Shown: positions 37,676 through 43,252 of the stretch, one piece after another | Numbering within the stretch: position 1 is the first letter of the stretch | How the letters are laid out: each line of letters starts with the position of its first letter | Assembly: GCF_030384885.1 (NCBI RefSeq) | Contig: NZ_CP128613.1 | DNA from: Escherichia coli | GTDB lineage: Bacteria; Pseudomonadota; Gammaproteobacteria; Enterobacterales; Enterobacteriaceae | DNA: 64,000 nucleotides | Reading direction: 5' to 3' (one strand) | Position numbers and translations under genes: made by a program | The notes under the pieces: generated by a model | The model's input: the letters and a program-made list of their open reading frames with translations, nothing else | What the model was told of the DNA's origin: nothing | Databases searched by the model: none

Positions 37676-37931
37676 TTACAGCCACAGCACAATGATCCAT
37701 ATTTATATTTTTTCTCCGGGTGGGTGATGCCAGTCGGCATGTTTTACCTACTTGTCTGCATGGTGACTCGTTGGCGAGAACAGAGGCGGAATTGGTTACA
37801 ATTGTCCGGGAATTCTTGTTATTTTTTACTGTATTGTCGTGTCGGGTGATAGGACGTTAAGAATATCGCTGGATCTCGCCAGTGACGTCTGTTTCTGCTA
37901 CAGTGCCCGTTTTACGGCAAACGGCTTGGGT

Positions 37932-38927
37932 ATGGCTTCATTAAAGGATGTCGCACGCCTGGCGGGAGTGTCGATGATGACTGTCTCCCGGGTGATGCAT
38001 AATGCAGAATCTGTGCGTCCTGCAACGCGTGACCGCGTATTGCAGGCAATCCAAACCCTGAATTATGTTCCTGATCTTTCCGCTCGTAAGATGCGCGCTC
38101 AGGGACGTAAGCCGTCGACTCTCGCCGTGCTGGCGCAGGATACTGCTACCACTCCTTTCTCTGTTGATATTCTGCTTGCCATTGAACAAACCGCCAGCGA
38201 GTTTGGCTGGAATAGTTTTTTAATCAATATTTTTTCTGAAGATGACGCTGCCCGCGCGGCACGTCAGCTGCTTGCCCTCCGTCCGGATGGCATTATCTAT
38301 ACTACAATGGGACTGAGGCATATCACGCTGCCTGAGTCTCTGCATGGTGAAAATATTGTATTGGCGAACTGTGTGGCGGATGACCCAGCGTTACCCAGTT
38401 ATATCCCTGATGATTACACTGCCCAATATGAAGCAACACAGCATTTGCTCGCGGCGGGCTATCGTCAACCGTTATGCTTCTGGCTACCGGAAGGTGCGTT
38501 GGCAACAGGGTATCGTCGGCAGGGATTTGAGCAGGCCTGGCGTGATGCTGGACGAGATCTGGCTGAGGTGAAACAATTTCACATGGCCATAGGTGATGAT
38601 CACTACACCGATCTCGCAAGTATACTCAATGCCCACTTCCAGTCTGTAAAACCAGATTTTGATGTTCTGATTTGTGGTAACGATCGCGCAGCCTTTGTTG
38701 CTTATCAGGTTCTTCTGGCGAAGGGGGTACGTATCCCGCAGGATGTCGCCGTAATGGGCTTTGATAATCTGGTTGGCGTCGGGCATCTGTTTTTACCGCC
38801 GCTGACCACAATTCAGCTTCCACATGACATTATCGGGCGGGAAGCTGCATTGCATATTATTGAAGGTCGTGAAGGGGGAAGGGTAACGCAGATCCCTTGC
38901 CCGCTGTTGATCCGTTGTTCCACCTGA
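37932..38927 (+). CDS. cscR: LacI-family sucrose operon repressor CscR
   Basis: Translation from MASLKDVARLAGVSMMTVSRVMHN (331 aa) has a LacI-type HTH and periplasmic-binding-protein-like fold; the ORF track extends 31 codons upstream. Confidence 0.88.
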   Translation: MASLKDVARLAGVSMMTVSRVMHNAESVRPATRDRVLQAIQTLNYVPDLSARKMRAQGRKPSTLAVLAQDTATTPFSVDILLAIEQTASEFGWNSFLINIFSEDDAARAARQLLALRPDGIIYTTMGLRHITLPESLHGENIVLANCVADDPALPSYIPDDYTAQYEATQHLLAAGYRQPLCFWLPEGALATGYRRQGFEQAWRDAGRDLAEVKQFHMAIGDDHYTDLASILNAHFQSVKPDFDVLICGNDRAAFVAYQVLLAKGVRIPQDVAVMGFDNLVGVGHLFLPPLTTIQLPHDIIGREAALHIIEGREGGRVTQIPCPLLIRCST

Positions 38928-38934
38928 TATTATG

Positions 38935-40368
38935 TTACCCCAGTTGCCAGAGTGCTCCATGTTGCAGCACGCCCACTCCGTGGGCGGCATAGAGCGACAG
39001 TTCCCGTTCTTCTGGCTGCGGATAGATTCGGCTACTCATCACAGCTTCCCCGTCGTTAATAAATACTTCCACGGATGATGTATCGATAAATATCCTTAGG
39101 GCGAGCGTGTCACGCTGCGGGAGGGGAATACTACGGTAACCATCTAAATTCTCGTGTGGGTAATACCGCCACAAAACAAGTCGCTCAGATTGGTTATCAA
39201 TATACAGCCGCATTCCCGTGCCGAGCTGTAATCCGTAATGTTCGGCATCGCTGTTCTTCAGAGCCCACTGCAACTGAATCTCAACCGCTTGCGCGTTTTC
39301 CTGCAAAACATATTTGTTGCTGATTGTGTGGGGAGAGATTGATTGATGCTGCTGGCGTAACGACTCAGCTTCGTGTACCGGGCGTTGTAGGAGTTTGCCA
39401 TTGCTCTCAGATAGCTCGCGCGCCAGCGTCATGCAGCCTGCCCAGCCTTCACGTTTTGAGGGCATTGGCGATTCCCACATATCCATCCAGCCGATAACAA
39501 TACGCCGACCATCCTTCGCTAAAAAGCTTTGTGGTGCATAAAAGTCATGCCCATAATCAAGTTCAGTAAAATGCCCGGATTGTGCAAAAAGTCGTCCTGG
39601 CGACCATATTCCGGGTATTACACCACTTTGAAAGCGATTTCGATAATTGTATCCCTCGGCATTCATTCCCTGCGGGGAAAACATCAGATAATGTTGATCG
39701 CCAAGGCTGAAAAAGTCCGGACATTCCCACATATAGCTTTCACCCGCATCAGCGTGGGCCAGTACGCGATCGAAAGTCCATTCACGCAATGAACTACCGC
39801 GATAAAGCAGGATCTGTCCCGTGTTGCCTGGGTCTTTCGCCCCGACTACCATCCACCAGGTGTCGGCTTCACGCCACACTTTAGGATCGCGGAAGTGCAT
39901 GATTCCTTCTGGTGGAGTGAGGATCACACCTTGTTTCTCGAAATGAATACCATCCCGGCTGGTAGCCAGACATTGTACTTCACGAATTGCATCGTCATTA
40001 CCTGCACCATCGAGCCAGACGTGGCCGGTGTAGATAAGTGAGAGGACACCATTGTCATCAACAGCACTACCTGAAAAACACCCGTCTTTGTCATTCTCGT
40101 CTCCTGGCGCTAGCGCAATAGGCTCGTGCTGCCAGTGGATCATATCGTCGCTGGTGGCATGTCCCCAGTGCATTGGCCCCCAGTGTTCGCTCATCGGGTG
40201 ATGCTGATAAAACGCGTGATAACGATTGTTAAACCAGATCAGGCCGTTTGGATCGTTCATCCACCCGGCTGGAGGCGCGAGGTGAAAATGGGGATAAAAA
40301 GTATTCCCCCGGCGCTCGTGAAGTTTTGCTAGTGCGTTTTGCGCCGCATGCAATCGAGATTGCGTCAT
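38935..40368 (-). CDS. cscA: Sucrose-6-phosphate hydrolase / invertase (GH32)
   Basis: Translation from MTQSRLHAAQNALAKL (477 aa) with the GH32 motif WMNDPNG. Confidence 0.9.
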   Translation of the reverse strand: MTQSRLHAAQNALAKLHERRGNTFYPHFHLAPPAGWMNDPNGLIWFNNRYHAFYQHHPMSEHWGPMHWGHATSDDMIHWQHEPIALAPGDENDKDGCFSGSAVDDNGVLSLIYTGHVWLDGAGNDDAIREVQCLATSRDGIHFEKQGVILTPPEGIMHFRDPKVWREADTWWMVVGAKDPGNTGQILLYRGSSLREWTFDRVLAHADAGESYMWECPDFFSLGDQHYLMFSPQGMNAEGYNYRNRFQSGVIPGIWSPGRLFAQSGHFTELDYGHDFYAPQSFLAKDGRRIVIGWMDMWESPMPSKREGWAGCMTLARELSESNGKLLQRPVHEAESLRQQHQSISPHTISNKYVLQENAQAVEIQLQWALKNSDAEHYGLQLGTGMRLYIDNQSERLVLWRYYPHENLDGYRSIPLPQRDTLALRIFIDTSSVEVFINDGEAVMSSRIYPQPEERELSLYAAHGVGVLQHGALWQLG

Positions 40369-41498: not shown

Positions 41499-41569
41499 TG
41501 AGAAATAAACGGCGAGGCCGTTCTTGTCTCTGAATAGGACGTGAATATTTTAACGACAGGCAGGTAATT

Positions 41570-42817
41570 ATGGCACTGAATATACCATTCAAAAATGTGT
41601 ACTATCGTTTTGCATCCAGTTACTCATTTCTCTTTTTTATTTCCTGGTCGCTGTGGTGGTCGTTATACGCTATTTGGCTGAAAGGACATCTAGGGTTGAC
41701 TGGGACGGAATTAGGTACACTTTATTCGGTCAACCAGTTTACCAGCATTCTATTTATGATGGTCTACGGCATCGTCCAGGATAAACTCGGTCTGAAGAAA
41801 CCGCTTATCTGGTGTATGAGTTTCATCCTGGTCTTGACCGGACCGTTTATGATTTACGTTTATGAACCGTTACTGCAAAGCAATTTTTCTGTAGGTCTAA
41901 TTTTGGGGGCGCTCTTTTTTGGCTTGGGGTATCTGGCGGGCTGCGGTCTGCTTGATAGCTTCACCGAAAAAATGGCACGAAATTTTCATTTCGAATATGG
42001 AACAGCGCGCGCCTGGGGATCTTTTGGCTATGCGATTGGCGCGTTCTTTGCTGGCATATTTTTCAGTATCAGTCCCCATATCAACTTCTGGTTGGTTTCG
42101 CTATTTGGCGCTGTATTTATGATGATCAACATGCGTTTTAAATATCAGGATCAGCAGTGCGTAGCGGCAGATGCGGGAGGGGTAAAAAAAGAGGATTTTA
42201 TTGCAGTTTTCAAGGATCGAAACTTCTGGATTTTCGTCATATTTATTGTGGGGACGTGGTCTTTCTATAACATTTTTGATCAACAGCTCTTTCCTGTTTT
42301 TTATGCAGGTTTATTCGAATCACACGATGTAGGAACGCGCCTGTATGGTTATCTCAACTCATTCCAGGTTGTACTCGAAGCGCTGTGCATGGCCATTATT
42401 CCTTTCTTTGTTAACCGGGTAGGGCCAAAAAATGCATTACTTATCGGTGTTGTGATTATGGCGTTGCGTATTCTTTCCTGCGCACTGTTCGTTAATCCCT
42501 GGATTATTTCATTAGTGAAGCTGTTACATGCCATTGAGGTTCCACTGTGTGTCATTTCCGTCTTCAAATACAGCGTGGCAAACTTTGATAAGCGCCTGTC
42601 GTCGACGATCTTTCTGATTGGTTTTCAAATTGCCAGTTCGTTGGGGATTGTGTTGCTTTCAACGCCGACTGGAATACTTTTTGACCATGCAGGTTACCAG
42701 ACGGTTTTCTTCGTAATTTCGGGTATTGTCTGCCTGATGTTGTTATTTGGCATTTTCTTCCTGAGTAAAAAGCGTGAGCAAATGGTGATGGAAACGCCTG
42801 TACCTTCTGCAATATAG
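41570..42817 (+). CDS. cscB: Sucrose:H+ symporter (MFS, oligosaccharide:H+ symporter family, LacY-like)
   Basis: 415-aa 12-TM ORF MALNIPFKNVYYRFASSYSFLFFISWSLWWSLYAIWL. Confidence 0.9.
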   Translation: MALNIPFKNVYYRFASSYSFLFFISWSLWWSLYAIWLKGHLGLTGTELGTLYSVNQFTSILFMMVYGIVQDKLGLKKPLIWCMSFILVLTGPFMIYVYEPLLQSNFSVGLILGALFFGLGYLAGCGLLDSFTEKMARNFHFEYGTARAWGSFGYAIGAFFAGIFFSISPHINFWLVSLFGAVFMMINMRFKYQDQQCVAADAGGVKKEDFIAVFKDRNFWIFVIFIVGTWSFYNIFDQQLFPVFYAGLFESHDVGTRLYGYLNSFQVVLEALCMAIIPFFVNRVGPKNALLIGVVIMALRILSCALFVNPWIISLVKLLHAIEVPLCVISVFKYSVANFDKRLSSTIFLIGFQIASSLGIVLLSTPTGILFDHAGYQTVFFVISGIVCLMLLFGIFFLSKKREQMVMETPVPSAI

Positions 42818-43252
42818 ACGTAAACTCTTTCCGGTTGTTGTCGATAGCTCTATATCCCTCAACCGGAAAATAATAATACCAAAATGCTTAGCGCGGCTAA
42901 TAATCGCCTAATCCAAACGCCTCATTCATGTTCTGGAACAGTCGCTCAAATGTTCTCAGGATACGCGGTTCGCTGATTTCCAGGAAATTGTCGTAATTCA
43001 GCGACCTGTCCCGTGTATCACGGGCCTGCTAATCCATCAAGGAATGCATTGCGGAGTGAAGTATCGAGTCAAGCCAGATTTCGCGATCAGGATTCTGTGT
43101 GATGATTACATTGCCAGGCCCGGGGCTGTTTAGTCATCGCCGCACAGTGCTGAGATTTCAACCTGTTGCAGGGAAAATGAGTAGATTTAGGGCAAGTGTG
43201 CTGCCAAACCCAACTTTTACGCGGGGAAGGTAGATTTCGTTGGAAGGATAAA

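Follow-up and report, generated by a model that had tools for sequence, protein, structure and literature searches.

The analysis of the 64-kb stretch of E. coli DNA considered here (the window) raised the question of what occupies the interval between the remains of dsdX and the tRNA gene argW, and of how it came to lie there. We conclude, with a probability of about 0.95, that the interval contains csc, the non-PTS regulon for sucrose catabolism known from the E. coli chromosome, in its canonical position. The limits of this island were set by blastn against K-12: homology ends at 37689, inside dsdX, and picks up again at 43247, and the DNA absent from K-12 corresponds to 37690-43252 of the window (right edge at 43246/43252). 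Past 37689 the alignment with K-12 diverges while csc-bearing genomes go on matching, which places the left junction at 37689/37690. An earlier sequence-only reading of this DNA had started the island at 37676; that position is 14 nt inside the dsdX remnant and has to be corrected. One side of the island is bordered by this 197-nt remnant and the other by the 3′ end of argW, the latter as had been described. The features at the borders are as follows:

36147..37475, minus strand: dsdA, D-serine ammonia-lyase, 442 aa, intact (TIGR02035, 809 bits; annotated as dsdA in matching genomes)
37493..37689, minus strand: 3′ remnant of dsdX, equivalent to K-12 DsdX residues 374-445 (blastn match ends at 37689; tblastn 1.6e-24)
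37690..37931, plus strand: island-specific DNA upstream of cscR, diverging from K-12 and matching csc-bearing genomes
43253..43327, minus strand: argW, tRNA-Arg(CCT) (ARAGORN; Rfam, 63 bits)

The csc block stands where dsdC and the initial five-sixths of dsdX would be. Zero tblastn matches to the K-12 DsdC protein were found across all 64 kb, and K-12 DsdX matched the window in residues 374-445 only, which bears out the earlier statement that dsdC and most of dsdX had been replaced. Alignment of the remnant revealed a 21-nt lineage-specific deletion between 37644 and 37645; in the genomes of relatives the same remnant bears the annotation of a partial DsdX pseudogene. The segment 37690..37931 presumably contains the cscR promoter.

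Four genes were found within the island:

37932..38927, plus strand: cscR, LacI-family sucrose repressor, 331 aa (Pfam PF00356 and PF00532; annotated start 37932)
38935..40368, minus strand: cscA, cytoplasmic GH32 invertase (sucrose hydrolase), 477 aa (PF00251 and PF08244; TIGR01322, 481 bits; annotated start 40368)
40584..41498, plus strand: cscK, PfkB-family fructokinase, 304 aa (NF006957 fructokinase, 504 bits, the cutoff being 450)
41570..42817, plus strand: cscB, LacY-family sucrose:H+ symporter, 415 aa (PF01306 LacY_symp, 637 bits; TIGR00882, 590 bits)

All Pfam and NCBIfam matches of the four proteins exceed the curated cutoffs. CscA carries the motifs WMNDPNG at 36, RDP at 160 and ECPD at 215, and its best relative of solved structure is 7vco (E = 7e-175); CscK carries GGAPAN at 28 and DSTGAGD at 245, with the fructokinase 5ey7 as its best solved relative (1e-94), and CscB matches LacY structures at about 1e-62. 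In NZ_OZ501679.1 the corresponding genes include a 'sucrose operon repressor CscR' and, for cscB, a 'sucrose MFS transporter'. The gene for the repressor is convergent with cscA, which is itself divergent from cscK-cscB, and this orientation is identical in NZ_OZ501679.1 and in E. coli W. All four open reading frames have lengths equal to those in W and O157:H7 and contain zero internal stops. The sequence-only reading had named a LacI-type repressor, a GH32 invertase, a fructokinase and a LacY-like symporter, and each is present as an intact frame at the place given for it, with the expected family matches.

Comparison with the csc loci of sucrose-positive E. coli, which had been suggested as a check on this identity, gave 95.8-96.9% nucleotide identity per gene to both W and O157:H7. 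Against W the values were 96.9% for cscR and 96.4% for cscA, and the proteins differ from their W counterparts at 5-11 residues each (10 in CscR, 11 in CscA and 10 in CscB). It could be argued that the block is instead a different sucrose system, either an scr regulon of the PTS type or an operon for raffinose (raf), since both NCBIfam and PGAP name CscA 'sucrose-6-phosphate hydrolase'. Operons of the raf type likewise include a LacY-like permease and an invertase. However, the block has no open reading frame for a PTS enzyme II, a porin or an alpha-galactosidase, its transporter is of the LacY family, and it is 96-97% identical to characterised csc loci. Gene content and identity refute both the scr and the raf assignment, to which we give a negligible probability.

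Regulatory elements were sought in the region separating the divergent genes:

40369..40583, no strand assigned: divergent cscA / cscKB control region, 215 nt, of the same length in W and O157:H7
40403..40414, no strand assigned: CscR operator near cscA, perfect palindrome GTTAACGTTAAC (sequence match and PMC11251922)
40448..40463, no strand assigned: cAMP-CRP site TGTGATTAATATCACA, read from the sequence as TGTGA-N6-TCACA
40467..40478, no strand assigned: second CscR operator GTTAACGTTAAC, 64 bp from the first copy

The CscR operators have been described as a pair of 12-bp inverted repeats in the cscA-cscK interval, with the Crp operator adjoining the cscA -35 region (PMC11251922). In the window the operator sequence has two matches only in 64 kb, where 0.14 would be expected by chance. 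The control region differs from those of W and O157:H7 by 9 and 10 substitutions, respectively, and the operators are untouched. Two of the differences fall in the CRP site, which has T at 40450 and at 40454 where W and O157:H7 have C and G; the version seen here is closer to the consensus half-sites than either of theirs. In the control region a consensus promoter scan detected nothing promoter-like; regionwide it returned fewer matches than in shuffled sequences, making the scan uninformative.

On the basis of homology and of the literature, the regulon would work as follows. Sucrose would be brought in together with a proton by CscB and split by the cytoplasmic invertase CscA to glucose and fructose, and CscK would then phosphorylate the fructose. 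CscR, as a LacI-type repressor, would switch off the divergent cscA and cscKB promoters by binding to the two identical 12-bp palindromes, and cAMP-CRP would activate them. The strain should therefore be able to use sucrose, although probably slowly or at high concentration only. The clear sucrose-positive phenotype foreseen by the sequence-only reading is too strong, because published isolates with csc only show slow or no growth on sucrose: among 29 csc+ scr- isolates fast growth was seen in none, slow or very slow growth in 23 and no growth in five, four of these five having a csc locus without visible defect (PMC11251922). E. coli W itself is reported to use sucrose efficiently above 1% only (PMC3938415). 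Both observations would also suit a locus that is intact but cryptic, leaving the strain sucrose-negative in standard conditions due to tight repression by CscR or to low-affinity transport. This we regard as rather unlikely: the four reading frames and both operators are intact, the CRP site is nearer to the consensus half-sites than in W or O157:H7, and EHEC, whose locus is 96-97% identical, grows with sucrose as sole carbon source and loses this growth when csc is deleted (PMC7486766).

The position of the island has a second consequence. Loss of the activator gene dsdC and the transporter gene dsdX leaves dsdA orphaned, and D-serine catabolism should not be inducible although dsdA is intact. 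In EHEC, which has the same configuration, dsdA is silent (PMC7486766), and it is known that csc sits between argW and dsdX and that D-serine use is lost (PMC3032704, PMC7486766). The predicted strain is thus one in which sucrose use is probably slow, D-serine is not catabolised and sensitivity to D-serine is likely. The trade-off between sucrose and D-serine has been connected with the way in which intestinal versus urinary E. coli are restricted in their niches (PMC7486766).

At the other border, the att core used by CPS-53-type prophages consists of the last 15 nt of argW (43253-43267) and is unoccupied in the window. In the K-12 annotation CPS-53 starts 15 nt before the end of argW and pawZ is the 15-nt duplicate; in strain 2013C-4282 the match to the window breaks at 43267, and a CPS-53 remnant is inserted there. 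No second copy of the core was found in the window with up to 3 mismatches allowed, in agreement with the earlier failure to see a direct repeat of the argW 3′ end at the distal junction. The K-12 proteins IntS and TorI have no tblastn match in 64 kb, Rfam detected nothing but the tRNA across the whole window, and there are no open reading frames of at least 60 aa on either strand between cscB and argW. The claim that integrase and prophage genes are missing stands for intact genes. It does not extend to a decayed piece of DNA in the cscB-argW spacer:

42906..43133, minus strand: internal pseudogene fragment of a DUF4942 gene, 228 nt, covering aa 76-151 of a 281-aa protein, with an in-frame stop

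The fragment matches the DUF4942 protein of ATCC 25922 with 55% identity (tblastn, 9e-21) and Pfam PF13708 with 31.3 bits (cutoff 25), and it is the island's only mobile-element content. It is a remnant of a CP4-type integrative island and as such a fossil of mobile DNA. Full-length DUF4942 paralogues (about 75% nucleotide identity) are positioned after YeeU/CbtA modules. In other strains PGAP calls short DUF4942 open reading frames in the same spacer. By blastn the spacer has no homology to the K-12 pawZ-dsdC spacer. We found no mention of the fragment in PMC3032704, PMC7486766 or PMC11251922, a set to which Jahreis 2002 and Moritz & Welch 2006 do not belong.

The csc block at argW and truncated dsdX is ordinary, being present in about half of complete E. 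coli genomes: at least 80% of the island query was found in 2645 of 5426. The DUF4942 fragment occurs in nearly every csc+ genome (2623 versus 2645). A recent horizontal acquisition, by way of a mobile element or a phage integrating at argW, could be suspected from the position at a tRNA hotspot, from the DUF4942 relic in the spacer and from the lower G+C content of cscB (about 0.43). Base composition is mixed across the island: cscR, cscA and cscK, with about 0.49-0.53, resemble the flanks, and cscB and the spacer have about 0.43-0.47. Four phage records also have csc at the record end, beside the argW att position. These are read as host DNA flanking argW prophages, and phage-borne csc was rejected. 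A plasmid search gave no evidence for carriage on plasmids, the matches being mislabelled chromosomes (nearly all of them), very large records or unrelated GH32 genes at about 73% identity. Moreover, integrase, torI and att repeat are all absent, and the divergence of the island from W and O157:H7 equals that of flanking core genes (at fourfold-degenerate sites, 5-14% for the csc genes and 8-17% for dsdA, emrY, yfdC and mlaA). The island and flank alleles are also common to much the same minor lineage: genomes at least 99% identical number 38 for the spacer, 25 for the whole island query and 37 for the flank yfdC-mlaA, and these are much the same small set. Recent acquisition is thus very improbable; these comparisons indicate an old island, inherited vertically in this lineage, and no recent insertion.

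As to how an old island came to be at argW, DUF4942 genes typically sit at the far end of integrative islands of the CP4 type. Our tentative suggestion, which we consider less likely than not, is that csc reached argW as distal cargo of such an island, or directly beside one, and that later deletions removed, on one side, everything from the integrase to the middle of the DUF4942 gene and, on the other, the distal att repeat, dsdC and the 5′ part of dsdX. The DUF4942 fragment is internal, and its direction of transcription, away from argW, is that of such genes in CP4-type islands. If true, this course of events would explain a tRNA-adjacent island that has neither an integrase nor a repeat.

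On the evolution of this hotspot, detail is added by the empty att site at argW and by the DUF4942 fossil; knowledge of the csc system is left unchanged. The finding matters little beyond annotation, and csc is already known. The sequence-only reading had likewise called this a known and not a novel system, and the near-identity to characterised loci and the literature, which gives exactly this position, agree with it.

Among named systems, the scr (PTS) regulon of Klebsiella and of E. coli phylogroup B2 shares the substrate and has a LacI-type repressor, a GH32 hydrolase and a fructokinase, but differs in its PTS enzyme II and porin, genes with no counterpart in the window's block, and in supporting fast growth (PMC11251922). 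The backbone is shared with the argW-CPS-53-dsdCXA region of K-12: mlaA, yfdC and argW at one end, the 3′ end of dsdX with dsdA, emrY and emrK at the other. What K-12 carries in the position of csc is the CPS-53 prophage, pawZ, dsdC and a dsdX of full length. The cscBKAR genes of EHEC O157:H7 (z3623-z3626; PMC7486766) form the same island with the same junctions and an orphaned dsdA. The O157:H7 spacer is 90% identical to that of the window and 6 nt longer. Its open reading frame is by position z3622, which has been placed beside the csc genes (PMC7486766) and is here identified as the DUF4942 fragment; in contrast to the window, a recombinase gene and phage genes adjoin that spacer. The csc regulon of E. 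coli W (ATCC 9637) and EC3132 was described by Bockmann 1992 and Jahreis 2002, as cited in PMC3032704 and PMC11251922. Unlike the window, with its empty att site, W has a P22-like prophage between spacer and argW; the window further differs by 5-11 amino acids per protein, by two CRP-site substitutions and by the 21-nt deletion in its dsdX remnant. The two loci nevertheless agree in the length, order and orientation of their four genes, in the point at which dsdX is truncated and in both operators.

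The csc locus (the chromosomal non-PTS sucrose regulon cscR/cscA/cscK/cscB) and its flanks were mapped by ORF listing, tRNA detection and family scans, with the following result:

33440-36018, +, emrK / emrY (flank)
36147-37475, -, dsdA, 442 aa; TIGR02035 at 809 bits
37493-37689, -, dsdX remnant, 3' fragment only
37932-38927, +, cscR, 331 aa; LacI HTH and Peripla_BP_1
38935-40368, -, cscA, 477 aa; GH32 N and C domains
40584-41498, +, cscK, 304 aa; NF006957 fructokinase at 504 bits (cutoff 450)
41570-42817, +, cscB, 415 aa; LacY_symp at 637 bits
42818-43252, no strand, cscB-argW spacer, 435 nt
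43253-43327, -, argW, tRNA-Arg(CCT); 3' end adjoins the island
43403-44335, -, yfdC (flank)
44629-45384, +, mlaA (flank)

For cscR and cscA the starts follow the annotation of near-identical RefSeq genomes; the mechanical ORFs begin slightly further upstream. Directly past the cscB stop codon, at 42828-42869, there is a 10-bp inverted repeat (TTTCCGGTTG / CAACCGGAAA, 22-nt loop), which was missed by the terminator scan and may be a transcript-end structure. The yfdF position (45566-46765, -) holds a 399-aa ORF of low G+C (0.33-0.38); it shares 78% identity with E. coli W YfdF (352 aa), which it exceeds by about 47 residues.

Comparison with K-12 MG1655 by blastn showed that homology runs from dsdA into dsdX, stops at 37689 (K-12 2478967) and restarts at 43247, six bases past the argW 3' end, all DNA in between being missing from K-12. 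At this place K-12 carries CPS-53, pawZ (a 15-nt argW duplicate), dsdC and dsdX nucleotides 1-1120. Alignment resolved the island/dsdX junction to a single base. The sequence-only reading, which gave 37676-43252, had the right locus; its left border is moved to 37690, the sole correction to that observation. Within the dsdX remnant, alignment also revealed a 21-nt deletion between 37644 and 37645 that K-12 and most csc+ genomes do not have; it is specific to the lineage of the window and common to strain 2013C-4282.

Searching the 64 kb with K-12 proteins by tblastn gave no match anywhere in the window for DsdC, IntS or TorI, and a DsdX match limited to residues 374-445. The 15-nt att core TGGTGTCCCCTGCAG, i.e. 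the last 15 nt of argW, occurs once in the 64 kb with up to three mismatches allowed, and a second copy was not found. Given the map, the K-12 borders, the tblastn results and the att-core search, the earlier observation of csc genes between a dsdX remnant and argW therefore holds, as do its statements that integrase genes and an att repeat are absent.

Strain 2013C-4282, the genome nearest to the window, matches it without a difference up to 43267. Past this point a degraded CPS-53-like element (L003 11869-15531) precedes argW, with torI, a PACE transporter gene, a LysR regulator gene and an intS pseudogene; in E. coli W a P22-like prophage lies between the csc spacer and argW. The window's own att site is unoccupied. 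Among phage records, four E. coli phage entries (ON470594.1, ON470608.1, ON470622.1 and ON470589.1) contain the csc block, whole or in large part, at one record end, where it terminates at the argW att position; this is probably host DNA flanking argW prophages, or an aberrant excision product. Plasmid carriage is not supported: the plasmid matches were mislabelled chromosomes or unrelated GH32 genes.

In the cscB-argW spacer, 42914-43114 has about 75% DNA identity to full-length DUF4942 genes found in E. coli outside this locus. In translation, 42906-43133 (-) aligns with a DUF4942 protein of 281 aa over residues 76-151 (E = 9e-21, with an in-frame stop), and the Pfam PF13708 match exceeds the cutoff. 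In ATCC 25922 the full-length gene follows the DUF932 / antirestriction / RadC-like / YeeU / CbtA module of a large island, and cargo genes lie past it. The fragment is read as the remains of a CP4-type integrative island. As it is internal (both ends are missing), directed away from argW and retained by almost all genomes that have csc (2623 genomes, against 2645 with the island), it is compatible with a possible history where a CP4-type element was formerly present at argW and later almost wholly deleted.

Two exact copies of the palindrome GTTAACGTTAAC lie in the 215 nt that separate cscA from cscK, at 40403 and 40467, and the window as a whole has no other match (0.14 matches expected by chance). 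Between them, at 40448-40463, lies a predicted CRP site, TGTGATTAATATCACA. Taken as putative control sites, these elements match the published csc layout, in which two 12-bp CscR operators flank the cscA promoter and a Crp site lies beside the -35 region (PMC11251922). W and O157:H7 have the same operator sequences as the window. At 40450 and 40454 the window has T where W and O157:H7 have C and G, which gives its CRP site perfect consensus half-sites (TGTGA-N6-TCACA); these substitutions may affect expression.

According to the literature on near-identical loci, CscB would import sucrose with a proton, CscA would hydrolyze it in the cytoplasm and CscK would phosphorylate the fructose, with cscA and cscKB repressed by CscR and activated by cAMP-CRP (PMC3032704, PMC11251922). 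With dsdC lost and dsdX truncated, dsdA would be silent and D-serine unusable (PMC7486766). Despite the loss of this activator and transporter, dsdA is intact at 442 aa; in EHEC the silent gene is reactivated by deletions placing it under cscAp or the promoter of the spacer ORF z3622 (PMC7486766). The sucrose-positive phenotype, previously regarded as clearly predicted, is less clear-cut: among 29 csc+ scr- isolates none grew fast on sucrose, 23 grew slowly or very slowly and five did not grow, four of these without a visible locus lesion (PMC11251922).

At fourfold-degenerate sites the csc genes diverge from W and O157:H7 by 5-14%, and dsdA, emrY, yfdC and mlaA by 8-17%; the spacer is about 90% identical to both, the neutral level. 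For emrY, dsdA, yfdC and mlaA, identity to W, O157:H7 and K-12 reaches only about 96-97%. Of the 5426 complete E. coli genomes, just 37 show 99% identity or more in yfdC-mlaA and just 38 in the spacer, and strains recur between the two lists. Because of the fourfold-site values, the spacer identity and these few near-identical genomes, we place the window in a minor and fairly divergent E. coli lineage whose island and flanks diverged together. Such joint divergence points to old, vertical inheritance of the island.

CscA retains the GH32 motifs WMNDPNG, RDP and ECPD, and CscK retains GGAPAN and DSTGAGD. The nearest solved structures are sucrose-6-phosphate hydrolase 7vco for CscA (E = 7e-175), fructokinase 5ey7 for CscK (1e-94) and LacY for CscB (about 1e-62). 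For comparison, the csc locus was located in E. coli W, the reference strain for sucrose use, and in one O157:H7 genome: gene lengths are equal in all three, internal stops are absent from all genes, and the window differs from the other two by 5-11 amino acids per protein (95.8-96.9% nucleotide identity per gene). NCBI annotation, wherever it names genes, calls the four cscR, cscA, cscK and cscB. The families, this annotation and the identity to W and O157:H7 support the assignment to the csc regulon. A megablast search with 37400-43400 against the 5426 complete E. coli genomes detected the island, counted where a single location covers at least 80% of the query, in 2645 genomes; as the sequence-only reading had stated, this is an already known sucrose system, and a very common one.
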